From assembly GCA_964479165.1 (NCBI GenBank), contig CAYZJO010000002.1:265493-329492 (forward strand): a DNA stretch of 64,000 nucleotides, written 5' to 3'. The number at the start of each line of letters is the position of its first letter. Within the stretch, counting starts at the first letter, position 1. Made by a program: the position numbers and the translations under genes. The notes below the pieces were generated by a model. It did no database searches and was not told the DNA's origin. It saw nothing but the letters and a program-made list of their open reading frames with translations. Shown one piece after another: positions 501 through 16,799 of the stretch. Origin of the DNA: an uncultured Dehalococcoidaceae bacterium. Lineage in GTDB: Bacteria; Chloroflexota; Dehalococcoidia; UBA2979.

Positions 501-2465
501 CTACTCCACCGTCTCGGCGAGGACGAAGCAACTCCCGAGGACGAGCAGCCCGTTCGCAGGCGCGTCCGCCCGCGACGTCTGCTGGTCGCCGACGCGCATC
601 CGGACCCGCTCGACGAAGGCAACACCCGGCAGGTTCTGCAGCGCGGCCGCGATCTGCGACTCGGTCACGCCCGAGCCGAGCTCCCACCCGCGTCCTCGGG
701 GACCGCCTACGAGCGGATTGAGGAAGCGACGGAGTGCTGCCTCGGCACGGGCGGTCATCTCCTCAGTACCAATCCCCTGCTCCACGAAGAGGTGCGCGTC
801 GATGTCGACGATGGCGTTCGCCGGCCCGACGTACTCGACGGTCGTCCCGAGGATCTTGCGCTCGTCGATGCTGGCGCTGACCTCGCGGATAAGCGCGCGC
901 GAGGGCGTCAGACCTTCCGCTGGCAGCGCGGCCTCGGGATCGCCGACATCAGGCACCACGACCAGCCTCACAACGCCGGGCGCGACGTCGAGGACGCAGT
1001 GCGCGCGGCCGACGCCGGGGATCGTGCTCGCGACGCGCTCGTAGTCGTCCTTGGTGACGACCGTCTCGGTCGTGTGCAGGACGGAAAGCGAGCGAAGTCG
1101 CGCCTCCTCGATGGACTCGCTGTCGAGCCCGCCGGTTGCGGGGCGGTAGTTCATGACCGCGCCGATGTACGGCACGGAGGAGCGCAGCTGCGTGATCGCG
1201 CCCTCACCGACGTTGCCCTCGGCGCCGCCGCCCGTGCGGTACGCCGTCATCACCAGGGTCTCCCCACGTCGCGGCGACGCGCCGAGCGTGCGCAGCGTGC
1301 CGTCGCGGCCTCGCATCGAGGAACCGAAGTGGACAACCCCGTTCTCGTAGTCGAGGACGAAGTGCAGGTCGTCGTCGCGCGACCCGCCGAAGTCGTCGAC
1401 CTCGGTCCATGTGCGCACCTCGGTGTCGCGCGTCCCCTCGATGGTGTGCGGCGTCGGGCTGCGCAGGACCGGGTGATCGCGCAGCTCAAGGACCTGCCCG
1501 GGCTCGCCATCGCCCTGCCCGAGTACCTCACCCTGCGCGAGGTAGGCGTGCCGCGCGCGCACCGTCGCAGCGATCGCGGCGGCTGCGATCGAGATGATGA
1601 CGGGTGACTGCTCATAGGCCTGGCCCGGCTTCAGCGTGTGTCGCACTCGGACCCACGTCGCCTCGACGCCGTCGACCGTCGTGCGTCGCGAGTCGATCGG
1701 GACGTGGAGGTAGAGATCGCCCGCGCGGTTGAGGCCGAGCGTCGGGTCCATGTCGCCCGGAGCGCGACGCCTCCCGGTGCCCGTGCTGTCGAGGAGGGGC
1801 AGCGACCGCCAGTCGCCGCGGTCATCCGACCAGTACTCCCACGACAGCGGCGGGTCGCGCGGATCGATGTGGGTCGCCGCGTGCAGGGCGGCGTCGATGC
1901 GCAGCTGCAGGCTCTGCCCCGCGAGATCGCCCTCGAAGCCGATGTAGAACGCGTCGCCGTCCTGCGGCTCCTCGTTGAAGATCGGCGCCTCGACGCGACC
2001 ACCGGTCGTGTACGGCAGGTAGTTCTCGAAGCCCGAACCCTGCCGCCACGCGCGCTGTGCGATGAGCACAGGCTGATCGATCGTCAGCGGCTCCATCGTC
2101 GCGAAGACAAGTGCCTCGGTGTCCTCGGTGCGGTCGGTCGCGACCTCGGTCTCTGCCGGCACGGTGAATGGACGCTGGAGCGGCGCCGACAGGTAGAAGG
2201 TGACGTCGACCTCGGCCGGAACGGGCGGGTAGCGCTTCACGCCGACCATGTCGAGGAAGCGCTCGTACATCGCGTCCGGCACGCGGTTGATCTGGTACAG
2301 CGTCATCTCGGTCATCCACGCGAATAGCTCGAGCAGCGTGATGCCGGGGTCGCTGACGTTATGGTCTGTCCACTCCGGGCAGTAGCGCGGGATCAAGCGT
2401 CGCGCCTCGTCGACGATGTCCTGGAACTCGCGCAGGTCGAGGGGCCGGTCGGGCGTCGTCACCAC
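501..2465 (-). CDS. baseplate J-like protein (Afp11-like, putative baseplate assembly protein)
   Basis: 654 aa with a GTG start. The N-terminus RYCPEWTDHNVSDPGITLLELFAWMTE matches the WTDHNxSDPGxTLLE signature of the baseplate_J / TIGR02243 family. It follows gp25 directly. Confidence 0.85.
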   Translation of the reverse strand: MVTTPDRPLDLREFQDIVDEARRLIPRYCPEWTDHNVSDPGITLLELFAWMTEMTLYQINRVPDAMYERFLDMVGVKRYPPVPAEVDVTFYLSAPLQRPFTVPAETEVATDRTEDTEALVFATMEPLTIDQPVLIAQRAWRQGSGFENYLPYTTGGRVEAPIFNEEPQDGDAFYIGFEGDLAGQSLQLRIDAALHAATHIDPRDPPLSWEYWSDDRGDWRSLPLLDSTGTGRRRAPGDMDPTLGLNRAGDLYLHVPIDSRRTTVDGVEATWVRVRHTLKPGQAYEQSPVIISIAAAAIAATVRARHAYLAQGEVLGQGDGEPGQVLELRDHPVLRSPTPHTIEGTRDTEVRTWTEVDDFGGSRDDDLHFVLDYENGVVHFGSSMRGRDGTLRTLGASPRRGETLVMTAYRTGGGAEGNVGEGAITQLRSSVPYIGAVMNYRPATGGLDSESIEEARLRSLSVLHTTETVVTKDDYERVASTIPGVGRAHCVLDVAPGVVRLVVVPDVGDPEAALPAEGLTPSRALIREVSASIDERKILGTTVEYVGPANAIVDIDAHLFVEQGIGTEEMTARAEAALRRFLNPLVGGPRGRGWELGSGVTESQIAAALQNLPGVAFVERVRMRVGDQQTSRADAPANGLLVLGSCFVLAETVE

Positions 2466-2489
2466 GGTGATGCCTCGCTCATTCCTCGG

Positions 2490-2954
2490 TTAGTCCTCGC
2501 CGATGAGGTAGAAGGGATAGACGAGCGTCCGGTCGTCCTTCGTCGCGCGGATCTGGTAGCCGATCTCGATGTCCACCCAGCCGTGCGCCGGCGTCGGCAC
2601 GATCTCGATGTTCACCACGTCGATGCGCGGCTCCCAGAACGCGAGCGCCTCTTCGACGTAGCGGCGCATGTATCCGAACGTCGTCGCGTTCAGCGGAGCG
2701 AAGACGAGCTCGTGGATCTGGCAGCCGAACGTCGGCCGCATCCGCCGCTCCCCCGGACGCGTTCCGATGATGATGCGGATGGCCTGCTCGATGTCCGTGT
2801 CGTAGCGCGCCATCGCGATGCCGCCGCGCGCACGGCTCACCGACGTCAGCTCGTAGGGCCTCCGCAGATCGACACGCACCGGGAAATGCCAGCCGACGCC
2901 GACAATCTGCTCCTCGACGTTGCCGTTCCGGCCGTTGCCGTTGCTCATCACCAT
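2490..2954 (-). CDS. GPW/gp25-family baseplate wedge protein (Afp9-like)
   Basis: 154 aa. IEQAIRIIIGTRPGERRMRPTFGCQIHELVFAPLN matches the GPW_gp25 core. Alternative start at 2948. Confidence 0.85.
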   Translation of the reverse strand: MVMSNGNGRNGNVEEQIVGVGWHFPVRVDLRRPYELTSVSRARGGIAMARYDTDIEQAIRIIIGTRPGERRMRPTFGCQIHELVFAPLNATTFGYMRRYVEEALAFWEPRIDVVNIEIVPTPAHGWVDIEIGYQIRATKDDRTLVYPFYLIGED

Positions 2955-2979
2955 CGCGGCGCGCTCCTGATCGCGTTGC

Positions 2980-4722
2980 TCATGGCCCGATCGCCACGTT
3001 GGGCGCCTTCACCTCGGTGCGGCCGCTGGCCTGCAACGTTGCGGTCGCGTTCGCCTTGAGGTTGAGCTGCGTCCCCGCCTCGACGCTCGTGGCGCCGGTC
3101 GAGCTCTTGAACGACAGCGAACCCGTTGCCTCGAGCTTGATGTCGCGGTCCGCCTTCATCTCGATCGATCCCTTGGCCTTGATCGTGACGTCGCCGTCCA
3201 TCTCGATCGTCAGGCTCTTCGCCTGCGTGTCGATCAAGAGCTTGTTGCTGCCGGTCGAGTCGACGATGGTGATGCCCGGCGAACTGCTGCTGTCGTCGAG
3301 GATGAGCGTGTGGCCCGTCCGCGACTTGATGATCCGGCGCTCCACCTGGCCGCCCGCGACGTTCTTCGAGCTCACCTCGGGCGGCTTGTCTCGCTGATTC
3401 CAGAGGCCACCGAGGACGAAGAGCTGATTGACGTCGCTCCCGACGACGAGCACTTCGTCGTCGACCTCGGGGAGGAACTGCACCCCGCGCTCGGCGCCCG
3501 CGCCCGGCGAGACGACGCGGCACCAGTGGCTCTCGACGTCCGCGCCGAGCGTCGGCAACTTCACCTTCACCCGGCCGCGGTCGCCTTCGTCGTCCTTGTT
3601 GTTCGTGACGATGCCGACCAGCATCTGCATCCCACCACCGGATCGCGGCGATAGCAGGCTGAGGACGTCCGTCGGGCGGCGTCCCGAGATGCTGAAGTGG
3701 TTGCGGTAGCCGTCCTGGCCGTAGCTGTGGGTGACGGCCGTGACGAAGTAGCTGCCGCTGAAGCGCTGCCCGGCGTTCTGGATCTTGAGCTCGCTCCCCA
3801 GGCGCAGCCGCGGATCGCCGATCGCCTCGCCCTCGGCGGTGATGAAGGCCTGCTCGAGCTCGTTGAGGGCGGCCTGTGCCAGCGCCGTCGCCTGCGTCAG
3901 GTTCACGATGTGCTCGCGGGCGATGACAACCTTCGCGCTGTCGTTGAACGACTTCTTGGCGGTGTCGCCGCCGGAAGACCGCTCCTCGACCTCGGTGGTC
4001 ACCTCGCCACGCTTCGCGGTTCCGACGATTTCTTCCTTCTTCAAGGGGTCCCAGCCGCGAACCTCGACTTCCTTCACCTGCTCGGACGCCGTGAGTTGGG
4101 CACGGAAGGACAGCAGGTTGTCGCCGTAGGTGAGATCGACCCCCTCCGCCTCAATGCTGGGCGGCGCTTTCATCACGAGCTTCTTGCCCTGCACCTGCAG
4201 CTCGAGGCCGTTGCGCTGGGCGCGGTCCTGCAGGAACTCCCAGTCCGTCCGGTTGTCCTGGAGGACGTAGGCGTGCACCGGCCTCGTGGTGGTGACCTCC
4301 GCGGTCATCCCGCGCTCCTGTGCGATCTTCCGAGCAATGTCCGCGTCGGACATGCTGTTGAAGACGCGCGTCTGGCGTCCGCGGTGCAGGCGGTAGCCCC
4401 GGTCGTAGGCACGCACGACCAGCTGCGCGACGCCGGCCATGTCGTTGTTCAGCTCGATTCCCGTGATCTCGCCGACGAACACCTCCCGACGCAGGTTGTT
4501 GCTGCCGAGTTCGATGGTCAGCTCGGCGCCGATCTTCATCTGCGTCGAGTCCGACCACTCGAAGTCGAGGTCCCCGAACGTCAGCGTGGCCATGTCCGGC
4601 AGGTGCACGCTGCTGTCGACCTCGAGCTCGAGGAGGTCGGCGAGCATCGCGTCAGGAATCGCCGCTCCGTTCGCCTTGATGAAGGCCTGTGCGACCGCGC
4701 GTTCGGCGACGTCACTCGGCAT
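2980..4722 (-). CDS. VgrG / phage late control gene D-like spike protein (Afp8-like) with C-terminal beta-helix repeats
   Basis: The ORF track extends to 4773, but an ATG at 4720-4722 (MPSDVAERAV...) removes the overlap with the upstream LysM gene. The protein has a gpD-like N-terminal region and a C-terminus with gp5-like repetitive beta strands (DGDVTIKAKGSIEMKADRDIKLEATGSLSFKSSTGATSVEAGTQLNLKA). Confidence 0.85.
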   Translation of the reverse strand: MPSDVAERAVAQAFIKANGAAIPDAMLADLLELEVDSSVHLPDMATLTFGDLDFEWSDSTQMKIGAELTIELGSNNLRREVFVGEITGIELNNDMAGVAQLVVRAYDRGYRLHRGRQTRVFNSMSDADIARKIAQERGMTAEVTTTRPVHAYVLQDNRTDWEFLQDRAQRNGLELQVQGKKLVMKAPPSIEAEGVDLTYGDNLLSFRAQLTASEQVKEVEVRGWDPLKKEEIVGTAKRGEVTTEVEERSSGGDTAKKSFNDSAKVVIAREHIVNLTQATALAQAALNELEQAFITAEGEAIGDPRLRLGSELKIQNAGQRFSGSYFVTAVTHSYGQDGYRNHFSISGRRPTDVLSLLSPRSGGGMQMLVGIVTNNKDDEGDRGRVKVKLPTLGADVESHWCRVVSPGAGAERGVQFLPEVDDEVLVVGSDVNQLFVLGGLWNQRDKPPEVSSKNVAGGQVERRIIKSRTGHTLILDDSSSSPGITIVDSTGSNKLLIDTQAKSLTIEMDGDVTIKAKGSIEMKADRDIKLEATGSLSFKSSTGATSVEAGTQLNLKANATATLQASGRTEVKAPNVAIGP

Positions 4723-4724
4723 CG

Positions 4725-5369
4725 CTAGACCACCGGCACAATCGCGAGGCGCTGCCCGGGCCGGAGCGACCACGGGTCATCGAGACCGTTGGTCTCGGCG
4801 ATGTGGTGCCAGCGCGCTGCGTCGCCGAGCTCGCGGTAGGCGATGAGGTCGAGCGTCTCGCCGGGCAGCACGGTATGACTGCGGAGCCCGCGCTCGCCTC
4901 CCGAGGTGGGGTTCTGCCCCGAGGGCTGGTCCGGCACCTCCTCGAGGCTGACCTTCACCTTCGCCCTCGCCGGCCGGCCGTCCGGGTGGAACATCGTGTA
5001 CGTCACGTCGACCGAGCTGACGAGCGACTTGAACAGCGTCTCGTTGCCCCAGCCGAACTTCACGAACTGGGGCCGCGGCTTCTTCGCGGCCCCCTCGGTG
5101 CCGCTGTCCACCATGACCAACTTCTCGAGCTTCGAGACGAAGTCGCGGACATTGCCGTCGTTCTCGTACTCGTCGACGAAGATCTCGAAGGAGAGCTTGC
5201 GCGCCTCACCGCTCTCGAACTCGAGCTTGGGGACGTTCTTGCCCTTCTGCTCGGTGCGCTTGAACTTCACGCGCTTGGCGATGGTGTATTCCTTCGGGTT
5301 GAAGGCGAACTCCACGCGCGTCTTCGCGCCATCGACTCCCTCGATGTAGGCCTTGTCCGGATTCGGCAT
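4725..5369 (-). CDS. LysM-domain tail protein (Afp7 / phage gpX-like)
   Basis: 214 aa. C-terminal LysM segment HTVLPGETLDLIAYRELGDAARWHHIAETNGLDDPWSLRPGQRLAIVP. A strong RBS (GGAGGAGG) lies upstream of the ATG at 5369. Confidence 0.8.
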   Translation of the reverse strand: MPNPDKAYIEGVDGAKTRVEFAFNPKEYTIAKRVKFKRTEQKGKNVPKLEFESGEARKLSFEIFVDEYENDGNVRDFVSKLEKLVMVDSGTEGAAKKPRPQFVKFGWGNETLFKSLVSSVDVTYTMFHPDGRPARAKVKVSLEEVPDQPSGQNPTSGGERGLRSHTVLPGETLDLIAYRELGDAARWHHIAETNGLDDPWSLRPGQRLAIVPVV

Positions 5370-5383
5370 CGCCGGTCCTCCTC

Positions 5384-7789
5384 CTACGTCCAGCGCTCGC
5401 CGCGGCCGGCGCGCTCGCGTTCGACGACGAAGCGGCGTCGCAGCCGCGTGTAGATGGCCTGCGCCAGGCGATCGAGTGCCTGCGCGTCCGGCTCGGCGGG
5501 GGCTTCGGCACCGGTGTCGGAGGCGGGCGTGCTCTCGGGAGGCTCCGCCATCTCCGCGCGCAGGACCGCAACGGGCCCCTCCGACCGTGCCTGCCGGAAG
5601 ACCTCCTCGTCGGCTGCTGGCGCGGTGGTGTGACGGGTTATCGAGGGCTGCTCGGCGCGCCGCACGGCCGCCTCGACGCGGGGGGACGGCGTCAGAGGTG
5701 GCGCACTACGGGGACTCGCCGCCCCGGGCGCAAGTCCGAGCTGCCGCGCAAGCACGTCGGCGTGCACCGTCTGAGGGCGGGCGTCAGCCGGCGCGGGCAT
5801 CGATTCGGGCGCCGGGCGGCGGAAGACGCGACGTACCTCGCTGGGCGCGGGGGCTTCGGCGCGCGGACTTCGGTGCAGCAACGTGGGGGCCGCGGGACTC
5901 GTCGGCTCCGTCACCCGTGCTGCGAGGTCCACCGCAGGCGACGCTGACGCCGGCGCCTCGATGCGAGCCTGCGCGGGCGGCGCAGCGGCCGGGGGGTCGA
6001 ACGGGCGCTCACGAAGAACGAGCTCGGGTGGTGGGGCAGCGGCTGTGCGACGGCTCTGCGGTGCAACATCCCTGATCGGCTCGGCTGGCCCGAGCGACTC
6101 GCTGGGTCGGGCCGCTGCAACCACTTTCGCGCCGGCAACCAGCGCTGCCGTCATGTGTGCTCGCAGCTGCTCAGAGTCTGGCGCGGCGCCTGCATCCATC
6201 CGAGCAGTGAGCTGCAGCGGGATCGGGCCTTCCGCGCGGGCGCGCTCCTCCTGCACCGTCGACTCGCCCGGCGCGATATCTGGTGGGGCCGCAGGTTCAG
6301 CCACAACCTCGTCGAGGTGGAACTCGTGGCGGAGGAGGAGACGCGACTCCAGCATCGGTGGCGAACTCACGGCCCTCTCAGGCTCTGAAGTCGCCGAGGT
6401 TCGCGCAGGCTGCTGTGCTCGAGCCGTCGTAGTTGTCGTCGCGGTGGTGCCTGGCTCCGGGTGTCCCGAGATACGACGAAGAACGCGCCGAACGAGCGAC
6501 GGCCCTGGCGATGCCGGCTGCTCGGACCCGACCGCAGGAGGGGCGGGCGCCGGTCCCGGCCCGAGTGCAGGCGCAGGATCGTCTCTCGCGACGGCTGGCT
6601 GCGTCCCCGGCCCCCCGGCAGCAACCTCGATGCGCGGTGCGACCGGACGAGCCTCCGCGCCCTCGCCCTGATCGAGCGGTCGGGGCACGGGGTCGGCGCT
6701 CACCAAACGCTGCACGCTGACCGCTTCCGCCGGACCAGCCTCGTGGCGCAGCTCAAGACGGACAGGCGGCACGTCGCGCGAAGGCGGCGTCTTGTCCGCA
6801 TCGTCGCGCAACGTGGGAGCACTCGGGCGTTCGTCGCTGGCCGGCCCCTCCATCACGTCCTCCCCAACGACAACGTGCGGGGTCTTCGCGGGAGGCGTGG
6901 GCTCCGAGGCAGGCTCCGCAGCGTCGGACGGAGCCGGTGCTTCGCGGCGAAACACGCGCCGAGCGAACGTGGCCAGCGGCGACGTCGCGCGCGCGGCGGG
7001 TTCCTCGGCGGTCGGATGTTCCGCGTGCTGGGTGGCCGGGGTTGCCGAGGCCGGGGTGGGCTCGACGCTGGGCTGGCGCATCAGCGCGGATGGCGAAGCC
7101 TGGAGCGACGCCTCGTCCTCATGCGCAGGGTGGCGCGCGACGAGTCGCCCCGGTTGTGTCGTGGAAGCGGGCGGCGGAGCCGACGTTCGCGCCTCGGCGA
7201 CGGGCGGAGGCTCGGAGACGACAGGTGACGCGTACCTCGATTCCGCCTCAACCGCCCGCGCGGCCATCGACCGCGGCCGTGGAGGTCGGGCGGACGCGTC
7301 GATGCCCGGCTCGGGACGCGGGTCCAGCAACCGGAAGATGCGCCGCACGAAGGGAACGCGGGGCGCGGGAGTGCTCGTGGTCTGCACCACCGGCGCGTCG
7401 ACGTCGCCGGCCTCGCCCCCGTCCGCGGGACCGAACGGCTGCGCGAGGCGCGCGAGCGACGCTGCCGTCGGCGACTGGATCGTGAGCACGGGGCGCTCCA
7501 GCCGCGTCGCCGGCTTCAACGGCTGGCGGAGCGCGGGATGAGCCTCGGGGGTGGTGAGCGTGCGCGCGACCCTCGTGCGCGCGGGACTGCGCTGCGCCTG
7601 GCGCAGCAGCGCGATGCCGGGCGTACGTCCGAGGCGTGTGCCCATCGTTGGCACGTCAGGGTTGTCGCCCCACGCGCCGGGGATCGTCAGCCCCTCAATG
7701 CGGCGCTCTGCCTCGCCATACCAGTCCCGCGAGGCCAGCCCCTCCGAAGGCGTCTTGGCTGCGCCGTTGGTGGTGTTCACGTTATCCAC
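5384..7789 (-). CDS. Pro/Ala/Arg-rich low-complexity protein; candidate tape-measure / tail length-determination protein (Afp14-like)
   Basis: 801-aa ORF with no stops, tightly packed between the second tube gene (8-nt overlap, GTG start) and the LysM gene. Its position (tube, chaperone-like gene, TMP, gpX, gpD) mirrors phage and eCIS synteny. The composition is highly biased, so the assignment is positional and compositional only. Confidence 0.45.
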   Translation of the reverse strand: MDNVNTTNGAAKTPSEGLASRDWYGEAERRIEGLTIPGAWGDNPDVPTMGTRLGRTPGIALLRQAQRSPARTRVARTLTTPEAHPALRQPLKPATRLERPVLTIQSPTAASLARLAQPFGPADGGEAGDVDAPVVQTTSTPAPRVPFVRRIFRLLDPRPEPGIDASARPPRPRSMAARAVEAESRYASPVVSEPPPVAEARTSAPPPASTTQPGRLVARHPAHEDEASLQASPSALMRQPSVEPTPASATPATQHAEHPTAEEPAARATSPLATFARRVFRREAPAPSDAAEPASEPTPPAKTPHVVVGEDVMEGPASDERPSAPTLRDDADKTPPSRDVPPVRLELRHEAGPAEAVSVQRLVSADPVPRPLDQGEGAEARPVAPRIEVAAGGPGTQPAVARDDPAPALGPGPAPAPPAVGSEQPASPGPSLVRRVLRRISGHPEPGTTATTTTTARAQQPARTSATSEPERAVSSPPMLESRLLLRHEFHLDEVVAEPAAPPDIAPGESTVQEERARAEGPIPLQLTARMDAGAAPDSEQLRAHMTAALVAGAKVVAAARPSESLGPAEPIRDVAPQSRRTAAAPPPELVLRERPFDPPAAAPPAQARIEAPASASPAVDLAARVTEPTSPAAPTLLHRSPRAEAPAPSEVRRVFRRPAPESMPAPADARPQTVHADVLARQLGLAPGAASPRSAPPLTPSPRVEAAVRRAEQPSITRHTTAPAADEEVFRQARSEGPVAVLRAEMAEPPESTPASDTGAEAPAEPDAQALDRLAQAIYTRLRRRFVVERERAGRGERWT

Positions 7790-8237
7790 TCGGGATCAGC
7801 CCCGCGTGTGCGAACTCGAGGGTCTCGATGGCCGCGTCGTTCGACGTGACGTTGAGCGCGGGACCGCTCCACTTCACGGGGAACGCGTCCGAGAAGTCCC
7901 AGCGGCGCACGGTCGCGCCCTCGGAGTCCGCGAGGATGATGCTGATCGGCTTGCGGGCCAACTCCCCGCGCGCCACCTCGAGGAACCAGTCGTACAGCTC
8001 GGTCGAGGCGAACACGGCCTGCTTGAGGCTGATGTTGTCGTAGCTCATACGGCCGGGAAACTGGTGCGCGTGCGTGTTGAGGCCGCCCTCCTCCCACTTC
8101 TCGACGGAGATCGTCGCGGTGAGGCCGCCGCACTCGGTGAAGATGCCCTGCACGCTGCCGTCGATCTCGACCATGAAGCTGAAGCCGAGGCCGATCGCCA
8201 CATCGTCGAGCGACTTGCTGTCGTAGAGGACGGCCAT
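7782..8237 (-). CDS. contractile-tail inner tube protein (Afp5-like, second tube paralogue)
   Basis: 151 aa starting MAVLYDSKSLDDVAIGLGFSFMVEIDG, homologous in pattern to the tube protein at 9137..9601 (MPQLYDSGAVSEDPLLGFAFYLDLES). Confidence 0.85.
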   Translation of the reverse strand: MAVLYDSKSLDDVAIGLGFSFMVEIDGSVQGIFTECGGLTATISVEKWEEGGLNTHAHQFPGRMSYDNISLKQAVFASTELYDWFLEVARGELARKPISIILADSEGATVRRWDFSDAFPVKWSGPALNVTSNDAAIETLEFAHAGLIPSG

Positions 8238-8451
8238 CGCCCGCTACCTCCAGCGCTCGATGCCACCGCCGCGGCGCTCGCGCTGACGCGCGAGGTCCTC
8301 GGCGAGCAGCCGGTAGACGCGCTCGGTGAGCTGGTCGAGGGCGCGCTCGGACAGGGCCGCCGGCTCTGCGGTCGGAGTCCCGGTGTTGGGCGCAGCCTCG
8401 ATGGGCTCGTTCATGCGGTCTCGGTTCCTTCGACGGCGCGGGCGTCGCGAC

Positions 8452-8714
8452 TCACGAACGCCCGGCGTTCATTCGCTCGTTGATGCGGCTGATCTCCTCA
8501 GCCCAGGCGCGGCGCTCCCGGTGCTCGAGGCGCAGCACTTCGTCTCGCGGCCAGTGGAAGTGGTACGAGACGAAGGCTGCCTCCTCCAGCAGTTGCTGCT
8601 CCGGGTAGCCGACGGCGCTCCAGTGCCGGCCGAGCCGCCGCAGCCCGAACTCGCCGAGCTCCTTGCTCAGCGTGTCATCGGCGGCAGGCCCGCCGCCGCG
8701 AGCGCCCGTTCCAG
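8452..8714 (-). CDS. -1 frame extension ORF; candidate transframe C-terminus of the upstream CxxC protein (tail assembly chaperone-like). It has no independent start codon.
   Basis: This -1 frame segment encodes a protein-like sequence (…LSKELGEFGLRRLGRHWSAVGYPEQQLLEEAAFVSYHFHWPRDEVLRLEHRERRAWAEEISRINERMNAGRS). There is no in-frame ATG/GTG/TTG after the stop of ORF 8667..9137. The only in-frame start (GTG 8823) would add a junk-like Arg/Gly N-terminus. Confidence 0.4.
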
Positions 8715-9137
8715 GAAAGGGTTCGGGGCTCCGCCGACCTCCACCGGCGCCGCCTCGGCGGCCGGCAGAGGCAACGGCGCATCGTCCTCCTCGAGCGACA
8801 TCGGGACGAAGTGCTCGCCGCACGCCGGGCAGCGGACGCTGCCGCTGTCGTCCACGAGCTCGTTGCGCTGCCGGTAGAACTCCTGGAGGAACGCGAGGTC
8901 CGTCGTGAACAGCCCCTCGATCACCCCCGTGTCGACCTGCGGCAGCGTGCCGAGCTTCGTGATCACGCGCGCCAGCAGCACCACCGTGTGGTACGCGGGG
9001 TTCTGCCGGACGCGCGGGTCGCGCAGCGGCGTGATCTCGTCCATCGCCGTCGCAAGCCGCATCGTGCCCTTGCGGTGCAGGTTGCCCGCCCGGTCGACGA
9101 AACCTCGCGGCAGGAAGAACTCGAACTCGGTTTGCAT
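8667..9137 (-). CDS. eCIS-associated hypothetical protein with a CxxC motif (RCPACGEHF); candidate tail-assembly chaperone. Zero-frame product is 156 aa.
   Basis: Its start overlaps the upstream tube gene stop (TGATG). It lies between the two tube genes. I recognise no named domain. Confidence 0.6.
   Translation of the reverse strand: MQTEFEFFLPRGFVDRAGNLHRKGTMRLATAMDEITPLRDPRVRQNPAYHTVVLLARVITKLGTLPQVDTGVIEGLFTTDLAFLQEFYRQRNELVDDSGSVRCPACGEHFVPMSLEEDDAPLPLPAAEAAPVEVGGAPNPFLERALAAAGLPPMTR
8715..8721 (-). promoter_or_regulatory. candidate -1 programmed ribosomal frameshift slippery heptamer C CCU UUC (Pro140-Phe141 of ORF 8667..9137)
   Basis: X XXY YYZ pattern in the zero frame. After a -1 slip the reading continues PGTGARGGG...LSKELGEF in the 8452..8823 frame. 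A 7-bp GC hairpin (cggcggc/gccgccg, 8679..8698) lies 16 nt downstream. Confidence 0.35.
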
Positions 9138-9601
9138 CAGCTCACCCTCTTGATGCCCTCATGCACGATGGTGATCTCCTCGACGCCGAATTCATTCGAG
9201 TCGACCTTGAGCGAGGGACCGCTGATCTTCGAGGGCCAGGCGTTCACGAAGTCCCAGCGAGCAACGGGGTTGTACTCGGAGTCCATCATCGTGATGGTCC
9301 CGTTGGTGCGGGCCTCCCTGACCTTGCCCTCGTTGACCTTCTGACGCCAATCCCAGAGTTCCATGTTGCTGGTGATGCCACGCTTGAGCGTGATGTCACC
9401 CCACTTGAGCTTCCCGGGAACCTTGAGAATGACCGCGTTCCCGTCCTTGTCGACGACCTTCTGCTCCACAACCTCGGTCTCGGCGCCGATGCCGGAGACC
9501 TCAGTGAAGAACCCACCGCCGGCGCTTTCGAGGTCGAGGTAGAACGCAAACCCGAGGAGCGGATCTTCCGAGACGGCCCCGGAGTCGTAGAGCTGTGGCA
9601 T
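9137..9601 (-). CDS. contractile-tail inner tube protein (Afp1-like)
   Basis: 154 aa. The pattern LGFAFYLDL...FTEVSGIGAETEVVEQK...PGKLKWGDITLKRG...ELWDW is typical of eCIS / T4 gp19-like tube proteins. Confidence 0.85.
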   Translation of the reverse strand: MPQLYDSGAVSEDPLLGFAFYLDLESAGGGFFTEVSGIGAETEVVEQKVVDKDGNAVILKVPGKLKWGDITLKRGITSNMELWDWRQKVNEGKVREARTNGTITMMDSEYNPVARWDFVNAWPSKISGPSLKVDSNEFGVEEITIVHEGIKRVS

Positions 9602-9656
9602 GTGCTGTTCCTTTCGCGGTCAGACCGCCGAAACGCGTGCGGCTGCGAGCCGGGCG

Positions 9657-11267
9657 CTACTCCTCGGCGCCCGGCGTGATCTGGCTGATGCGGAAGACAA
9701 CGAACTCGGCGGGTTTCACCGGCGCGATGCCGATCTCACAGACGAGGATGCCCGCGTCGATCATGTCCTGCGTGTTCGTCTCCGAGTCGCACTTCACGTA
9801 GAACGCCTCTTGCGGCGTCGCGCCGAAGAGCGCGCCCTGCGTCCACGTGCGGTTGAGGAACGCCGTCACGTCGCGGCGGACCTTCGCCCAGGTGCGCTGG
9901 TCGTTCGGCTCGAAGGGGACCCACTGCGTGCCCTGCTCGATGGAACCCTTGATGTAGTTGAAGAGCCGCCGCACGTTGAGGTAGCGCCACTCCGACGCCG
10001 CCTCGGCGAGCGTGCGCGCGCCCCAGATGCGGATGCCTCGACCCGGGAACGAGCGGATGCAGTTCACGCTCTGCACGTTCAACGTGCCGAGCTCCGCCTG
10101 CGTCAGGCTCGTCTCGAGATCAATGGCGCCCATCACCTCCTCGTTGGCCGGCGCCTTGTGCACGCCGCGCCGCGAGTCCGTGCGCGCCCATACTCCGGCG
10201 ACATGCCCGGACGGCGGGATGAACGACGCCGTCTTCGCTGCCGGGTCGTCGACCTTGATCCACGGGTAGTAGAGGACGCCGTAGCCACTGTCGCTCACGA
10301 GGTTCGCCTGCTTGCGCCAGTTCTCCATCTCCTGCGGAGACAGGCCCGGAGGCGAGTCGATGATCGCGACGCGATCCTCCATGCGCGTGCAGTGCGCGAT
10401 GAGCTGCTTCTGGACGGAGACCACGCCCTCCATGTCGATCAGGCCCTCCTGGAAGGCCTTCCACAGGTCGGGGATGGCGATCATCGTGACGTCGTCGAGC
10501 ACCTCGAGGCCGTCGATGCCCTCGCGGCGGGCGACGTCGCCCTGGAAGTCGGACGGGGAGACGGCGGTGACCGTCTCGGCGCCCTCGGCGAGGTTGTACG
10601 TGCCGACCGGCGGGACGCGGTTCGCGATGCTCACGCCGCGCGGCTGCAGGTCCTCGACGCTGATGAACATCGAGCCGCCGGACTCGGCGTTGATGACGTC
10701 GACGACGTAGCGCGCGTCGCTACGGCTGAGCGACAGGTCCTCGAAGGACTCTGCCGGGTACCCGGGCGCGCGCACGGTGATGCGGAAGCGGCCACCACTC
10801 TCGGATGCCTCGGGCGCCGGAGGCGCGTCCTCAGACGGCGCCCCGTCGCTGCCAGCGGGGGGAGCCGGCGGCGGCGCCGTTGGCTGGTCCTCGATCTCGA
10901 TGCGGACGTCGTTTCCCTGGGTGCCGGTCAGCTTCGAGGTGAAGCGGAGCGACTCCTGGGGCGATGCACGCCCCGGCAGCGCGAGCTGAGCGGGTGTGCT
11001 GTCGCCTTCACCGCCGATGCGGATGACGTAGCAGTTGCCGCCGCCGTTCATGAAGAAGCCGTACACCGCCAGCGGCGTGTACGAGCGGGTGAACCCGCCG
11101 AACGTCTCCTGGTACTGGGTCCAGTTCGTGACTCGGACGGCGCGGCCGACCGGGCCCTTCTCGGTGAACCCGACGAAGGCCGCGACCGACGTGCCGATAC
11201 CCTCGATGGGGCGGCTGCCGCTGGGGACCTCCTGCACGTATACGCCAGGCGCCTGGTAGGTAACCAT
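9657..11267 (-). CDS. contractile tail sheath protein (Afp2/3/4-like)
   Basis: 536 aa starting MVTYQAPGVYVQEVPSG..., the canonical sheath N-terminus. An RBS (GAGGAGAGG) lies upstream. Confidence 0.9.
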   Translation of the reverse strand: MVTYQAPGVYVQEVPSGSRPIEGIGTSVAAFVGFTEKGPVGRAVRVTNWTQYQETFGGFTRSYTPLAVYGFFMNGGGNCYVIRIGGEGDSTPAQLALPGRASPQESLRFTSKLTGTQGNDVRIEIEDQPTAPPPAPPAGSDGAPSEDAPPAPEASESGGRFRITVRAPGYPAESFEDLSLSRSDARYVVDVINAESGGSMFISVEDLQPRGVSIANRVPPVGTYNLAEGAETVTAVSPSDFQGDVARREGIDGLEVLDDVTMIAIPDLWKAFQEGLIDMEGVVSVQKQLIAHCTRMEDRVAIIDSPPGLSPQEMENWRKQANLVSDSGYGVLYYPWIKVDDPAAKTASFIPPSGHVAGVWARTDSRRGVHKAPANEEVMGAIDLETSLTQAELGTLNVQSVNCIRSFPGRGIRIWGARTLAEAASEWRYLNVRRLFNYIKGSIEQGTQWVPFEPNDQRTWAKVRRDVTAFLNRTWTQGALFGATPQEAFYVKCDSETNTQDMIDAGILVCEIGIAPVKPAEFVVFRISQITPGAEE

Positions 11268-11342
11268 GACCTCTCCTCGCTGCTCTCCGCTCGGAGCGCC
11301 GGCGTCCTCGCCGAGGTCTCCGCGCTGCTGCTCCTGATGCCG

Positions 11343-12222
11343 CTAGTCCTCCGACCGCTCCCCTTCGCCTTCGGAGGGTTCGTCGCCCTCCGCAGTCGCG
11401 AGATCGAGCGTGAGCACGCTGCCATCCGCGTACGCGCCGGCGGGTTCTTCCGACGCGAGCCGAAGGATGTCTCCATTGATGGCCACAAGTGCCGCCGTCG
11501 AGCCGCGGCGGACGCCGCGCAGCTCGAACGTGCCGTCCGCGCGGCTGGTCGCCGCTGAGCGATCCATCCGCACCTGCGCGCCAGCGACGGGCTCGCCATC
11601 GCGCACGAGGCGTCCGGTTATGTCGACCGGGATGTCCGGACTGACCGAGACGGGCGGCGGCATGACGATGCGCCGCTCGAGGACGAGCGGGCCCTCGCGC
11701 TGGATCTCGAGCTCGATCGGGATCGTGACCGACACCCGGATCGACGGCCGCAGGTCGTTGTCGAGGACGCTCCAGATGTCCACGATGTCCTTGATGGCCC
11801 CCGGCTGCGCGACCATCATCGGGATCTCGTAGCTCTCGGGAATGACGCCGTCGAAGGCCTCGAGGGGCAGCGTGAGGTGGCGGAAGAAGACGCGCGCCGC
11901 CCCCGTCAGCAGGCGGTGCTCGTCCTCGACCTCGTTGGACCAGGCGGTCACGAGGTACGAGCACTCGACGCGGATCGGGGGCCGCTTGTCGACGAAGCCG
12001 CCGTTCATACGCCCGGTCTCCCAGGGCGCGGGACGCAGCGTCCGGTTCTCCTGCATGTGGTAGAGGAAGAGGTTCAGCGTCGGACGCGTGAGCCTCGACG
12101 TGTTGTCGCGGCTGGGCACGTCGAAGGTAATGTCGAAGCCGCCCGCCTCGATGCGCTCGACGACGGTCGGCATCTCGGTGACGAGCAACGTACGCAGCGC
12201 GCGGTCGAGATCATCGATCATG
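11343..12222 (-). CDS. DUF4255 (Pvc16_N) tail terminator/cap-like protein (Afp16-like)
   Basis: The ORF track extends to 12506, but the conserved family N-terminus MIDDLDRALRTLLV...PTLNLFLYHMQENRTLRP begins at the ATG at 12220-12222. The upstream 95 codons are an Arg/His-rich in-frame artefact. Confidence 0.65.
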
Positions 12223-12316
12223 GCGCGCGCACCGTAGCGGCACGCGATTGCTGAATCGTTGCTTGCTCGTTGATAGGCGGGCTCGCGGCCGCCAACGGTC
12301 GCCACCCGGCCGGCGA

Positions 12317-12646
12317 CTACGTCCCGAGGACCTGCACCTGCCCCGGGTTCGCGATGATCGCCGGTACCCCCGGCGACCCGCCCATGCACAGGCCGATGCT
12401 GCTGGCGAGCAGCACAGGGATGTTGTTCACGAAGGTGCTGACGGCGGGCATCGTCCACTGGATGCTGACGCACGGCGCTGGCGCGCCCGCGATGTTGAAC
12501 ACGCATCCGGCGATCATCGTGACGTCACTCACCACGAGGACCGGGGCACCGCCGATGAGCACGGTCGGGTTGCTCGGCACAGTTGTCGCCTGCCCACCAT
12601 GAGGGCACATGATGGTCGCGGACGCGTTGAGGATCGGCGCCGGCAT
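12317..12646 (-). CDS. PAAR-like spike-tip protein (Afp10-like)
   Basis: 109 aa, Gly/Pro/Ala/Val-rich, with MCPHGGQ...VLIGGAPVLV motifs typical of PAAR-like domains. An alternative start at 12610 would give MCPHGG. Confidence 0.55.
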   Translation of the reverse strand: MPAPILNASATIMCPHGGQATTVPSNPTVLIGGAPVLVVSDVTMIAGCVFNIAGAPAPCVSIQWTMPAVSTFVNNIPVLLASSIGLCMGGSPGVPAIIANPGQVQVLGT

Positions 12647-12675
12647 TGAGGGCGCTCGGAGCTACGGGTTGCGGG

Positions 12676-13488
12676 CTAAGCGCCTGCCGCCGCGCTCGGG
12701 CCGTGCGGGCTCCGGTGCAGCGACATCTGGATACCTTCCTCATCTTCTTCCGGCACGTCTTCCCGGTGGAGCGAGGGTGCGAGCTCGGGCTCCTCTTCCT
12801 CTTCGGGAAGCTCGCGTGCCAGCGTCGAGGACATCTGCAGCTCTTCCTCAGGCAGCTCCTCCCGGGCCAGCGCCGAGGACATCTGGAGTTCCTCCTCCGG
12901 CGCTTCCTCGCGGGCGAGCGAGGTGCTGATGCTCGAGGACGGCGCGGACGCGAGCTCCTTCGAGAACGCCGACGCTTCCTGCTCCGCGGCGTCCTGCGGG
13001 CTGCTCACCCGCATGTCGCTGCCGCCGACTCCACCTTCACCGCCGCGCTGCTGCACGACGTGCGTCAGCTCGTGCGCGAGGAGTTGGTCGCCGCCGCTCG
13101 TGCCGGGCTGGTACTTGCCCTGCCGGAAGAAGATGTCCGACCCCGTCGTGAACGCGTCCGCCGACACGGCGTGGTTGAGCAAGTTCGCCTCGGAGTCGTC
13201 GTGCACGCGCACGTCGCTGAGGTCCGCGCCGAGCGCACCGCCGACACGTCGCTGCACCTCCGTGTCGAGGGAGCGACCGCCGCCCCGCTTCGACTCGATG
13301 GCATCCTCGACAGTCGAGTCGACAGCCGGATGCTCCTCGTCATGCTCGGACCGCAGCAGTCGCTGGACGGCCGCGTTACCGAGGGTCGAGACCAGCGGCG
13401 GCCGCGGGCGCGCTGCCTGGGGGCCGTCGGCCTCCGTCTCGCGCTGCCTCGCCCGTACCTCGTCCGTGAGTTCGTGGTCGAGAGTCAT
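12676..13488 (-). CDS. DUF4157 (eCIS-associated, HExxH zinc-metallopeptidase-like) protein with acidic C-terminal tandem repeats
   Basis: GRSLDTEVQRRVGGALGADLSDVRVHDDSEANLLNHAVSADAFTTGSDIFFRQGKYQPGTSGGDQLLAHELTHVVQQ matches the DUF4157 core. I prefer the start at ATG 13486-13488 (MTLDHELT, RBS AGGAGA) over the 13539 start. N-terminal TLGNAAVQRLL motif. Confidence 0.8.
   Translation of the reverse strand: MTLDHELTDEVRARQRETEADGPQAARPRPPLVSTLGNAAVQRLLRSEHDEEHPAVDSTVEDAIESKRGGGRSLDTEVQRRVGGALGADLSDVRVHDDSEANLLNHAVSADAFTTGSDIFFRQGKYQPGTSGGDQLLAHELTHVVQQRGGEGGVGGSDMRVSSPQDAAEQEASAFSKELASAPSSSISTSLAREEAPEEELQMSSALAREELPEEELQMSSTLARELPEEEEEPELAPSLHREDVPEEDEEGIQMSLHRSPHGPSAAAGA
12800..12945. repeat. 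About three imperfect tandem copies of a 45-nt unit inside the DUF4157 gene
   Basis: The DNA units (…gccagcgtcgaggacatctgcagctcttcctc… / …gccagcgccgaggacatctggagttcctcctc…) encode LAREEAPEEELQMSS / LAREELPEEELQMSS / LARELPEEEEEPE. Confidence 0.6.
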
Positions 13489-13519
13489 GATGTCTCTCCT
13501 CGATTGCCGGTTCCGACGC

Positions 13520-15712
13520 TTAGCGTCGGGCCTCTTCATACCACTCTGCGAAGTCGGCCGTCGTAACGAGGCGGCCGAGCTTCTGATACTCGCGACGCGC
13601 CGCGCGGATCAGGTGGCGCATGCCGATCGGTCCGCCGTCCGCAGCCGCGAGGAACGCCGCCAGCACGGCGATGTTGCGGATGTTGCCGCCGGCCACTCGG
13701 AACTGCCTCGCGGCGAAGTCCAGGTCGAGGTCATCGGCGAGCGGCGCGTTCGTGCGGAAGTTGAGCTCCCAGATGCGGCGGCGGTCGTCCTCGTCCGGCA
13801 CGGGGAAGTCGATGATCGCCTTCAACCGCCGCAGGAACGCGTCGTCAAGGTTGGCCCGCAGATTGCTAGAGAGCACGACGATGCCGTCGTACTCCTCGAT
13901 CTTCTGGAGGAGGTAGCTGACCTCGATGTTGGCGTAGCGGTCGTGCGAGTCGCGCACTTCGGTGCGCTTGCCGAAGACGGCATCCGCCTCGTCGAAGAAG
14001 AGGATGGCGCTCGCGCCGCTGGCCTCGTCGAATACGCGCGCGAGGTTCTTCTCCGTCTCACCGATGTACTTCGAGACCAGGCCCGAGAGGTCGATCTTGT
14101 AGACGTCGAGGCCGAGCTCGCCAGCGATCACCTCGGCGGCCATCGTCTTGCCGGTGCCGGACTCGCCGACGAACAGTGCCGATACGCCACGCCCGAGGGA
14201 CGCCTTGCCCGCAAACCCCCACTCCTCGTAGACCACGTGCCGGTGCAGCACCTGGAGCGCGATCTCTTTGAGTTGAGTGATGCGCTCTTCCGGCAGGACG
14301 ATGTCCTCCCAGCGATAGCGCGCCTCGATGCGCTGTGCCACGTCTGCGAGCCGCGGCTGCGACTGCATCCGCGCCGCCGTCTGCAAGGCCTCGAGGCCCA
14401 CGCTCTCCTCCCCGCGCCACGTACCGAGGCTGCGCGCCATGCGCGCTGCCGACTCGATGTCGGCTGCACCGAGGCGGAACGTGGCCGCGAGCTGGTCGAG
14501 GTCGTCTGTGGCGGCCGCGTCGCCGGCGGCGGCGGCCCAACGCCTGCGGGACTCCTCGTAGGTCGGCTCGTGCACCTCCATCACGAGGTCGAGTACGGGT
14601 TCGCGCGCGGGCGGACGCGGGGCGCGGCCGCCGAAGAGCACCGGCAGGGGGTGATCCTCAAGGGTGCGCGCGATCAGCCGCCCGAACGGCTCGATCGCGC
14701 CGGGCCGCTCGCCGTCGTCGTCCCAGCCCTCGAAGTAGAGCGCGAGCCCGAGGACGCAGGCGTCGCGACGCAGCCGCTGGAGTGCCCGCGGGGCGTCGGC
14801 GGGAGCGCGTTCACGCAGTGCGCCTGTATCGATGCTGGCGAGCCCAAGGCCGAGTTCGGTGCACGCGACACCGATGCGAGCACGCTTCTCCGCGACCCAC
14901 CGCCCTGCGAGGTAGACGCGCGCGTCCATGCGTCCGCGCAGCACCTCGGCGAGCCTTGCGCCGTCCGCAAGGTCCGAGGGATACGGCTCCACCTCGAGCT
15001 CGACCAGTCGTGCAATGCCCTCGAGCCGCGGGTCGAGACTCGGCGTGGCGTCATCCCTGCCGAGCAGCAGCGTCGCGACGTGAGGGTCGAGCTGCACGGC
15101 GTGGGCGAGCAACGACGGCGCGACGGCTGCAGCGTCGTCGGCGGTGGACAGCAGTTCGTACGTGATCAGGGGCGCGTTGGGCTCGAAGAGGCGGCGCAGC
15201 GCCAGCGCCTCGCGCCGCCCATCCGCGATCAGGTCGAGCACGAGCCCGACCGTCGGACGCTTCCTCGTGACATCGTCGTTCACGTAGGCGAAGACCTTCG
15301 CGTACGCCTGGTCGAGGTGCGGCGCGAGCGCGACCACGAGCGCCTGGCGTTCCTCGGGCGAAAGCCCGAACGCGGCCACGAGACGCTCAAGCGGCAACGT
15401 CACCCCGGCTGCCACGGATGTAGCAGCGCGCGCGTCGAGGTCGGCGCGGGAGGCTGCGGCTGCTCGCCGCAGTTCGGCGAGTCCCCCCGGCTGCTCGTCC
15501 GGAACCCCGAGCAGGTCGTCAACCTCCTCGTCCGAGATGTAGAGCCCACGGTAGTCGTCGGCAGGACCGAGCGCGCGACGACGCCGGCCGCGCTCCACCT
15601 CGATGCGCAGGCGGAGCGCGAGCCAGCGCAGCTCCGCCTCGAGCTGGTCGAGCGACGACGCGAAGGGCTCCGGCGCCTCGATCGACAGCGGTGGTTCCGC
15701 GGTGAGCGTCAT
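13520..15712 (-). CDS. AAA+ ATPase of the eCIS (Afp15-like)
   Basis: 730 aa. Walker A GESGTGKT, ILFFDEADAVFGKR and the SSNLRANLDDAFLRRL sensor region at the C-terminus, with a long N-terminal domain as in Afp15/Pvc15. RBS GGAGAGG upstream. Confidence 0.9.
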   Translation of the reverse strand: MTLTAEPPLSIEAPEPFASSLDQLEAELRWLALRLRIEVERGRRRRALGPADDYRGLYISDEEVDDLLGVPDEQPGGLAELRRAAAASRADLDARAATSVAAGVTLPLERLVAAFGLSPEERQALVVALAPHLDQAYAKVFAYVNDDVTRKRPTVGLVLDLIADGRREALALRRLFEPNAPLITYELLSTADDAAAVAPSLLAHAVQLDPHVATLLLGRDDATPSLDPRLEGIARLVELEVEPYPSDLADGARLAEVLRGRMDARVYLAGRWVAEKRARIGVACTELGLGLASIDTGALRERAPADAPRALQRLRRDACVLGLALYFEGWDDDGERPGAIEPFGRLIARTLEDHPLPVLFGGRAPRPPAREPVLDLVMEVHEPTYEESRRRWAAAAGDAAATDDLDQLAATFRLGAADIESAARMARSLGTWRGEESVGLEALQTAARMQSQPRLADVAQRIEARYRWEDIVLPEERITQLKEIALQVLHRHVVYEEWGFAGKASLGRGVSALFVGESGTGKTMAAEVIAGELGLDVYKIDLSGLVSKYIGETEKNLARVFDEASGASAILFFDEADAVFGKRTEVRDSHDRYANIEVSYLLQKIEEYDGIVVLSSNLRANLDDAFLRRLKAIIDFPVPDEDDRRRIWELNFRTNAPLADDLDLDFAARQFRVAGGNIRNIAVLAAFLAAADGGPIGMRHLIRAARREYQKLGRLVTTADFAEWYEEARR

Positions 15713-15785: not shown

Positions 15786-16799
15786 CTAATCGAGCCCGAG
15801 TTCGCTCAGCAGCGCCCGCGTCTCCTCGGACGGCGCAACATCGAACTCGGCGCGGAGGCGCTCCTCGCAGAGGCGGTACTGCCGCATCGCCTGGGCGCGG
15901 TTCCCCAGCATGGCGTGAGCGCGGACCACCCAGCGGTGCGCGGCCTCGTCGAAGGCGTCGCGCAGCACCAGCGTCTGGCCCAGCTGCAGCACTCGCGCCC
16001 ACTCCCCGCTCGCCGCGCCGTACTCGATCAGCCGCGCGACTGCCCACTCGTAGAGATTGCCGAGTGCCAGCCGCGGCTCGCCGGTCCATTCTTCTGTCAA
16101 GTCGGACTCGAGGAAGTCGCCGCCGTACTCCGCAAGTGCCGCATCGAGGCACGCCACCGCCTCGGCCTTCCGGCCCGCCGCGAACTCCGACTTCGCGCGA
16201 CCGACCGCCTCGCGGAACTCGACGGCGTCCACGTGCCACTCGAGCCCGCCATCGAGGCGGTACAGACCCTGCTCGACGAACAGCCCGCGACTTCCGTCGC
16301 CGTCACCCAGCCCCTCGCGAAGCCTCGAGCGGACGTGGTGCACGGCAATGCTGAGGTTGTTCGCACCTCGCGCGGGGTCGGAGTCCGGCCAGAACGTCTC
16401 GATGAGCGTCTCGCGCGCGGTCGGCCGCCCCGGCGTCAGCGCGAGGTAGGCGAGCAACTGGCGCGCCTTGCGGCTGCGCCAGCGATCGACAGGCCGCCCA
16501 TCGATGCTCAACTCGAACGCGCCGAGCAGGCGCACGCGGACCTCGGGAACCGGGGGCGCGGACGCCTCGACCTCGATCACCGGCGCCTGACGGGTGGCTG
16601 CCGCCTCGAGACGCGGAGCCACCAGCGCGAACAACCTCGCCTGCTCGCTGCGCAGTTCCGCGAGCTCGGCCCGCGTCTCGACCATCAGGCTGTGTAGCGC
16701 GTCGAGGCGATCGAAGACCGCGACGGCAGCGACATCGTCGGGCGTGCGGTCGCGCAGGACGAACGGCAATTGCGGTTGAGCGGCGAAGGCGATCCGCAT
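15786..16799 (-). CDS. SARP-family transcriptional regulator (OmpR-type winged helix plus BTAD domain)
   Basis: VRVRLLGAFELSIDGRPV...RKARQLLAYLAL...RETLIETFWPD...ANNLSIAVHHVRSRL followed by a TPR-like BTAD region. Co-oriented with, and immediately upstream of, the eCIS ATPase gene. Confidence 0.8.
   Translation of the reverse strand: MRIAFAAQPQLPFVLRDRTPDDVAAVAVFDRLDALHSLMVETRAELAELRSEQARLFALVAPRLEAAATRQAPVIEVEASAPPVPEVRVRLLGAFELSIDGRPVDRWRSRKARQLLAYLALTPGRPTARETLIETFWPDSDPARGANNLSIAVHHVRSRLREGLGDGDGSRGLFVEQGLYRLDGGLEWHVDAVEFREAVGRAKSEFAAGRKAEAVACLDAALAEYGGDFLESDLTEEWTGEPRLALGNLYEWAVARLIEYGAASGEWARVLQLGQTLVLRDAFDEAAHRWVVRAHAMLGNRAQAMRQYRLCEERLRAEFDVAPSEETRALLSELGLD

Follow-up and report, generated by a model that had tools for sequence, protein, structure and literature searches.

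Does an extracellular contractile injection system (eCIS) encode a tail assembly chaperone that is made, as in phage P2, in a short and in a long form by programmed -1 ribosomal frameshifting? The question is raised by a small gene in a 64,000-nucleotide stretch of DNA from an uncultured Dehalococcoidaceae bacterium (contig CAYZJO010000002.1 of assembly GCA_964479165.1, positions 265,493 to 329,492), referred to as the window in the following. The gene, an open reading frame (ORF) encoding 156 amino acids (aa) that we call ORF1, lies between two tube genes of an eCIS cluster and is overlapped in the -1 frame by a segment encoding a DUF6760 domain. An earlier note on this DNA had proposed a ribosomal slip that connects the two frames. 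Judging from sequence comparisons, we consider it quite probable that ORF1 and the -1 frame DUF6760 constitute a pair homologous to P2 gpE/gpE+E', the long form being made via a programmed -1 slip. Frameshifting of phage tail chaperones is textbook knowledge, and the eCIS case is a new instance of it rather than a new mechanism.

Overlapping frames and slippery heptamer in the window

ORF1 and its overlap were found as the earlier note had described them. The overlapping ORF (8452-8823, minus strand) is in the -1 frame of ORF1 (offset 2 mod 3). Its sole ATG, GTG or TTG codon is the GTG at 8823, and none occurs later in that frame, including the part behind the ORF1 stop. The first ~35 codons from this GTG are Arg/Gly-rich off-frame text of ORF1, and the openness of the -1 frame throughout ORF1 can be attributed simply to the GC content. 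Further downstream the frame encodes a Gly-rich linker, a conserved EFGLRRLGRxW segment and the DUF6760 domain, which matched Pfam with an E-value of 1.2e-17 (Table 1). This match identifies the -1 segment as a real coding sequence that lacks a visible start. Within EFGLRRLGRxW, situated between the ORF1 stop and the Pfam domain, the alignment of the subclade of the window (defined below) revealed mainly third-position substitutions.

The two frames can be connected at the heptamer C CCU UUC. The ORF1-frame codons AAC CCT TTC provide the correct phase of an X XXY YYZ slippery site, the only one in the overlap, at a position 15 codons before the ORF1 stop. In an overlap of 70% GC a lone in-phase heptamer is not significant by itself (background ~0.003 per codon position). 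Its significance arises from conservation: each of the 12 subclade loci (the window, L001 and L081-L090) has it in phase. Long linkers flank the slip site on both sides in this subclade. CCCTTT[C/A] is invariant in these loci, while the flanking linker carries many substitutions and indels. The residue encoded at the heptamer varies between Phe and Leu, and its codons are rare in the genes of the window (CCT for 28 of 234 Pro, TTA for 0 of 161 Leu). An invariant CCCTTT in combination with the Phe/Leu change and the rare codons indicates a constraint on the nucleotides and not on the amino acids.

A slip at this site would join 9137..8715 to 8715..8452, for which translation provides 141 + 87 = 228 aa (GAPNPF followed by PGTGARGG; predicted junction peptide ...GGAPNPFPGTGAR), in agreement with the length of about 228 aa that had been put forward before. 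In the stretch from the heptamer to the ORF1 stop, conservation is seen in the 0-frame tail (ERALAAAGLP), the -1 frame being a Gly-rich linker there. A 0-frame tail that is kept before the stop and a -1 frame that is kept behind it fit the prediction for dual coding of a short and a long product.

We propose that most ribosomes would read ORF1 to its stop and produce the 156-aa short form. Some would slip back by one nucleotide on C CCU UUC, such that tRNA-Pro and tRNA-Phe re-pair on CCC-UUU, and would continue in the -1 frame through the Gly-rich linker into the E'-like DUF6760 domain, yielding the 228-aa long form. Both the occurrence and the efficiency of the slip are predictions of this scheme. 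By analogy with lambda G/GT and P2 E/E+E', the short and the long form would act together. During particle assembly they would hold an 801-aa tape-measure-like protein, the presumed client of the chaperone, and recruit tube subunits.

The slip may be aided by a Shine-Dalgarno-like GGAGG upstream of the heptamer, which could pair with the 16S rRNA. GGAGG is present 13-16 nt upstream of the heptamer in 11 of the 12 subclade loci (the window, L001, L081, L082 and L084-L090) compared to a background of 0.0028 per nt. By analogy with known stimulators this suggests a candidate upstream element, and a better one than the hairpin favoured by the earlier note. That 7-bp GC hairpin exists at the expected place, 16 nt downstream of the heptamer, but a role as downstream stimulator is not supported, and it was rejected as evidence: it is no more stable than shuffled sequence (fold z -0.5 and -1.2), and a comparison of the six closest loci revealed neither conservation nor covariation of structure (covariation term +1.84).

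The two-frame arrangement in relatives

A search with the hypothetical ORF1-DUF6760 fusion returned 4795 homologues. Most of them comprise ORF1 only (125-160 aa, some being named 'phage tail assembly protein' by NCBI) and a handful are in-frame fusions with DUF6760. We compared 80 genome loci, 80 metagenome loci and four close relatives, in which both domains were placed using hidden Markov models. The genome loci come from Chloroflexi, Firmicutes, Actinobacteria, Myxococcota, Methanosarcina, Halobacteria and others. Together with the metagenome loci, the set also includes Cyanobacteria and covers at least six bacterial phyla as well as archaea; complete genomes and plasmids are among the loci. 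DUF6760 was located in the -1 frame of the ORF1 homologue in 79 of 79 genome loci and, together with the metagenome loci, in 159 of 160, and no single in-frame ORF was found among them. In the sole exception (L160) the closest match to DUF6760 lies outside the -1 frame, ~450 nt downstream of the N-terminal domain.

These data bear on the possibility that the two frames of the window merely reflect a 1-nt error of sequencing or assembly, or a pseudogene, ORF1 and DUF6760 in truth being fused in one frame. The database does contain a small number of such in-frame fusions (P0094, P0096, P0099, P0110, P0116 and P0117), and locus L168 departs from the usual arrangement by one extra G only. In several of the 'fusions', however, the zinc ribbon is traversed in the wrong frame, as is typical of contig indel errors; P0094, P0099 and P0117, with -1 text through or after the zinc ribbon, are probably such artefacts and were rejected as proof of a fused protein. 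The window site itself contains no long homopolymer, and the subclade retains the -1 arrangement in 12/12 loci along with a conserved 0-frame tail after the heptamer. We give an indel next to no credence: with the -1 frame found in 159/160 loci, in complete genomes and plasmids and in many phyla, we regard an indel or pseudogene in the window as excluded.

A gene for DUF6760 with its own start, which the earlier note had named as an argument against frameshifting, is not general. From the opening of the DUF6760 frame (or the end of the N-terminal domain) to the start of the DUF6760 domain, 85 of 159 loci contain no ATG, GTG or TTG in this frame. All of these 85 startless loci carry either an in-phase XXXYYYZ heptamer (72 loci) or a GGGGG run (13 loci). 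In-phase heptamers occur with 0.0395 per codon position at the junction and with 0.0029 inside the N-terminal domain, corresponding to a ~13-fold enrichment. The slippery motif, whose absence from related loci had likewise been named as a counter-argument, is thus present both in the subclade and family-wide.

In some loci the position of the frame change can be narrowed down considerably. In L079 a stop in the -1 frame stands right before GGG GGA and ORF1 ends right after GAG, such that the frame change must fall within 7 nt (GGGGGAG). For the Methanosarcina locus L062 the interval is 10 nt. In the Firmicutes loci the site is A AAU UUU or U UUU UUG/A, and start-like codons are absent from its vicinity. 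Loci L002-L080 and L091-L164 mostly have G GGG GAR or G GGG GGN, 0-2 codons before the ORF1 stop. These sites (e.g. L079 at 3345-3360 and L062 at 3345-3357) differ from the textbook X XXY YYZ and are candidates for an unconventional -1 site; L062 is also a candidate archaeal frameshift.

The only clean fusion at the junction is L168 (411-425; protein P0096 from a soil metagenome), where seven G's instead of six fuse the frames. It encodes ...ERLGG-VTRYP..., the exact product predicted for a -1 slip; the extra G may be either a real variant or a homopolymer error. An extra-G allele of this kind, and the runs of G5-G7 at the junction of most family members, could also be taken as signs of a shift at the RNA or DNA level, at which transcriptional slippage or slipped-strand variation at a homopolymer would provide an in-frame message. 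We consider such a shift highly implausible: CCCTTTC of the window has runs of 3 nt only, far too short for polymerase slippage, and A AAT TTT of the Firmicutes represents tandem-slip heptamers, for which the 0-frame phasing matters to ribosomes and not to polymerases.

DUF6760 could alternatively be a separate protein that is made by termination and re-initiation at the ORF1 stop, with CCCUUU being kept for other reasons. Re-initiation would have to use the near-cognate CUG overlapping UGA (CUGA) in the window and GUGA, AUGA or AUA elsewhere. Conserved coding in the -1 frame starts near the ORF1 stop, as it would for a second gene, and RefSeq splits the pair into a 'phage tail assembly protein' and a separate 'DUF6760 family protein'. 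For the plasmid pn3 of Nostoc sp. UHCC 0926 (L165, 2860-3030) the annotated DUF6760 coding sequence starts with an ATA that overlaps the TAG terminating the 'phage tail assembly protein', which shows that no ordinary start was available to the annotation pipeline. NTGA, present at the ORF1 stop of 8/12 subclade loci, was discarded as uninformative about re-initiation, since NTG arises in the -1 frame wherever the stop is TGA. Family-wide, 103/159 loci have ATA or GTA as the -1 codon across the stop, following the stop-codon choice and not a selection for starts. L015, L016, L079, L086 and L088-L090 lack any start-like codon at the stop or in its vicinity. Within the subclade no canonical start follows the heptamer in 7/12 loci; 4/12 loci, among them 3 of these seven, have the non-initiating GUA as the -1 codon across the ORF1 stop. 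CUG is a very poor initiator in bacteria. Re-initiation furthermore leaves unexplained the invariant, phased CCCUUU with its rare codons, the 13-fold heptamer enrichment and a conserved GG(I/V) in the -1 frame upstream of the stop, and the homologous E' domain of P2 is made only by frameshifting. Overall we regard re-initiation as an unlikely origin of DUF6760.

Several points weigh against a programmed slip. A GTG, ATG or TTG overlaps the ORF1 stop in 38/159 loci and RefSeq annotates two genes, such that separate initiation is possible in part of the family, and the CUG over the ORF1 stop of the window would in principle allow weak re-initiation. With the hairpin being neither significant nor conserved, the slip lacks an identified 3' stimulator. 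The loci are phylogenetically related, and the counts obtained from them do not represent independent events. Finally, the production of the long form is deduced from the nucleotide sequence.

Homology to P2 gpE+E' and comparison with other systems

The -1 frameshift of P2 gpE/gpE+E' is annotated in GenBank (AF063097; Pfam Phage_TAC_7 + Phage_P2_GpE) and takes place at U UUU UUG. The E' extension of P2 (...DDLMADVAVIFHWPPSELYPMSLTELITWREKA) aligns with DUF6760 (...EEAAFVSYHFHWPRDEVLRLEHRERRAWAEEI), the motif FHWP being common to both. When comparing an alignment of 158 DUF6760 sequences with P2 gpE+E' using hhalign, a probability of 86% and an E-value of 5.2e-6 were obtained over the E' region; a smaller DUF6760 alignment (A1) gave an E-value of 1.7e-4. 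In addition, 26/61 DUF6760 members match Pfam Phage_P2_GpE (PF06528), all below the Pfam cut-off (best E 0.0011), and P0096 matches phrog_1756, the family that P2 E' matches at 7e-28. On the basis of these profile comparisons DUF6760 is the homologous counterpart of the P2 E' extension. What the earlier note had put forward as a resemblance to P2 E/E' has thus been borne out as homology.

The putative chaperone character of ORF1 was addressed separately. ORF1 matches PHROG 508 'tail assembly chaperone' (E 2.5e-6), Phage_TAC_7 is weakly matched by 2/20 ORF1 homologues, and the best matches of the ORF1 model in a fold search were chaperone structures. Since hhalign found no match between the ORF1 N-terminal domain and P2 gpE, the chaperone assignment of this domain rests on PHROG 508 and the fold search. 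A Foldseek search of the ORF1 model against a viral library also listed T4-like 'baseplate hub assembly protein' entries among its matches (E 7e-3 to 2e-2). NCBIfam contains no family for ORF1 or DUF6760, searches of PDB sequences with the fused and the DUF6760 profiles returned chance hits only (E >=0.5), and a tblastn search of the fused protein against 50,697 phage records gave no match.

The resemblance to P2 extends to the gene layout. In both systems a small gene directly follows sheath and tube, the order sheath-tube-chaperone paralleling FI-FII-E/E', and the long form arises, as proposed for the window, by a -1 slip at X XXY YYZ a few codons ahead of where the short form ends. The extensions are homologous and share a (I/H)FHWP motif. 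Unlike in P2, the N-terminal domain of ORF1 is much diverged and carries a CxxC zinc-ribbon element, long linkers are found on both sides of the slip site, and the heptamer is C CCU UUC, or G GGG GAR/GGN in most relatives. Moreover, the extension does not overlap a tape-measure gene, since a 56-aa gene and a second tube-like gene intervene, and the host system is an eCIS with AAA ATPase and Pvc16 cap rather than a virus.

Two further frameshifting systems can be compared. Xu, Hendrix and Duda reportedly found in 2004 that the tail-chaperone frameshift is conserved in long-tailed phages, including lambda gpG/gpGT. The window proteins have no detectable homology to G or T, the T domain being unrelated to DUF6760, and lambda-type phages have non-contractile tails in contrast to eCIS. 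In E. coli dnaX a -1 frameshift occurs at A AAA AAG, where a Shine-Dalgarno element acts as stimulator from upstream and a hairpin follows downstream. Similarly, the window subclade has the Shine-Dalgarno-like GGAGG upstream of the heptamer at conserved spacing. The spacing is 13-16 nt here compared to ~10 nt in dnaX, no downstream hairpin is supported here, and the predicted shift lengthens the protein, whereas the dnaX shift truncates it.

Another class of eCIS proteins to be compared with DUF6760 are the spike-plug proteins Cis6/Afp6/Pvc6, which are small, helical, encoded near tube genes and essential for assembly (PMC8894136, PMC12546770). In contrast to these, DUF6760 is linked by its frame to a chaperone domain. 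No sequence match of DUF6760 to any PDB chain was found, which would include deposited plugs of contractile injection systems (CIS), and DUF6760 as a Cis6/Afp6 plug was rejected for want of this similarity.

Our literature search found no paper that mentions 'DUF6760' and none that links eCIS or CIS with a chaperone frameshift, in line with the earlier note; the Streptomyces CIS papers do not mention a chaperone frameshift either. One of them gives the function of sco4251, a sheath-operon gene that may or may not correspond to ORF1, as unknown.

Looking at the family as a whole, we lean towards the view that the -1 frameshift is an ancient and near-universal trait of an unrecognised core eCIS gene, inherited from phage tails and kept in both bacteria and archaea (Methanosarcina, Halobacteria). 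In most lineages the slip would take place at the unconventional G GGG GAR or G GGG GGN 0-2 codons before the stop, and some would have drifted to separate initiation or to full fusion. Assembly of the eCIS would depend on the long form, in which DUF6760 would act as an E'-type domain that couples the chaperone to tube or tape-measure proteins.

eCIS are being engineered for protein delivery, with assembly and length control being poorly understood. To our knowledge the standard Cis1-16 parts list includes no tail assembly chaperone. Annotation as two genes, sometimes with forced non-canonical starts, means that the long form could be dropped unnoticed when heterologous expression or knock-outs are designed. 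Reading the pair as a homologue of E/E+E' gives DUF6760, a Pfam family without known function, a testable role and links eCIS assembly to a well-studied phage paradigm. It also adds ~160 natural examples of putative -1 sites, including the GC-rich C CCU UUN, the G GGG GAR-stop type and candidate archaeal cases. The breadth over bacteria and archaea, the unconventional G GGG GAR-stop site and the RefSeq mis-annotation make the finding a useful and moderately surprising one.

The surrounding eCIS locus

Pfam matched eCIS markers across 501-15712 of the window. They comprise sheath, tube, Baseplate_J, gp25, a VgrG-like spike and a CIS_tube+LysM tube initiator as well as a Pvc16_N cap, a DUF4280/PAAR-like protein, an eCIS_core (DUF4157) protein and a WHD+AAA ATPase, which is the gene content of an eCIS locus. 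The positions of the genes around ORF1 and of the elements discussed above are given in Table 1.

Table 1. Features of the eCIS locus around ORF1 (nucleotide positions refer to the window)
Feature	Position	Strand	Evidence or remark
Sheath gene	9657-11267	minus	eCIS locus order
Upstream tube gene (Phage_T4_gp19)	9137-9601	minus	Pfam E 9.3e-36; stop overlaps ORF1 start
ORF1, 156 aa, short form	8667-9137	minus	between two Phage_T4_gp19 tube genes
ORF1 N-terminal domain, tail-assembly-chaperone-like	~residues 1-95	minus	profile and fold search
CxxC zinc-ribbon remnant of ORF1 (CPAC)	residues 103-106	minus	sequence
ORF1 C-terminal tail (LERALAAAGLPPMTR)	0 frame	minus	translation
GGAGG, Shine-Dalgarno-like	8738-8742	minus	16 nt upstream of heptamer
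Slippery heptamer C CCU UUC	8715-8721	minus	0-frame codons CCU-UUC, Pro140-Phe141; proposed -1 tandem slip site
7-bp GC hairpin	8679-8698	minus	16 nt after heptamer
-1 extension	8452-8715	minus	87 codons + stop TGA 8452-8454; reached only by the proposed slip
DUF6760 domain	8458-8601	minus	Pfam PF20546, E 1.2e-17, 64 bits vs cut-off 27; final 48 codons
56-aa ORF	8244-8414	minus	between ORF1 and second tube-like gene
Second tube-like gene (Phage_T4_gp19)	7782-8237	minus	Pfam E 1e-38
801-aa Pro/Ala-rich protein, tape-measure position	5384-7789	minus	just upstream of CIS_tube+LysM gene
CIS_tube+LysM gene	4725-5369	minus	locus order

The earlier note had compared ORF1 with phage chaperones encoded between the tube and the tape-measure genes. 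ORF1 does follow a tube gene, but the tube gene coming after it is a second tube-like one, and the tape-measure-like gene is found only behind that. The best NCBIfam match of the second tube-like product is the CIS5 tube adaptor, below cut-off. The 801-aa protein has no Pfam or PHROG match and matched no tape-measure profile. Within its Pro/Ala-rich sequence it contains at least 4 copies of a short (V/I)RR(V/I)(F/L)RR motif.

The 56-aa ORF resembles the C-terminal 55 aa of the 801-aa protein (5384-5551) with 40% identity over 55 aa (pairwise E 2e-6), and the tail ALDxLxxxxYxxL...ERERxGxGERW is common to both. The small ORF may encode a plug similar to Cis6, or it may duplicate the C-terminus of the tape-measure-like protein as a free polypeptide; by position it is a better plug candidate than DUF6760. 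At the other end of the cluster, a gene for a BTAD/Trans_reg_C (SARP-type) regulator at 15786-16799 (minus strand) adjoins the eCIS AAA ATPase gene, and its product may regulate the eCIS cluster.

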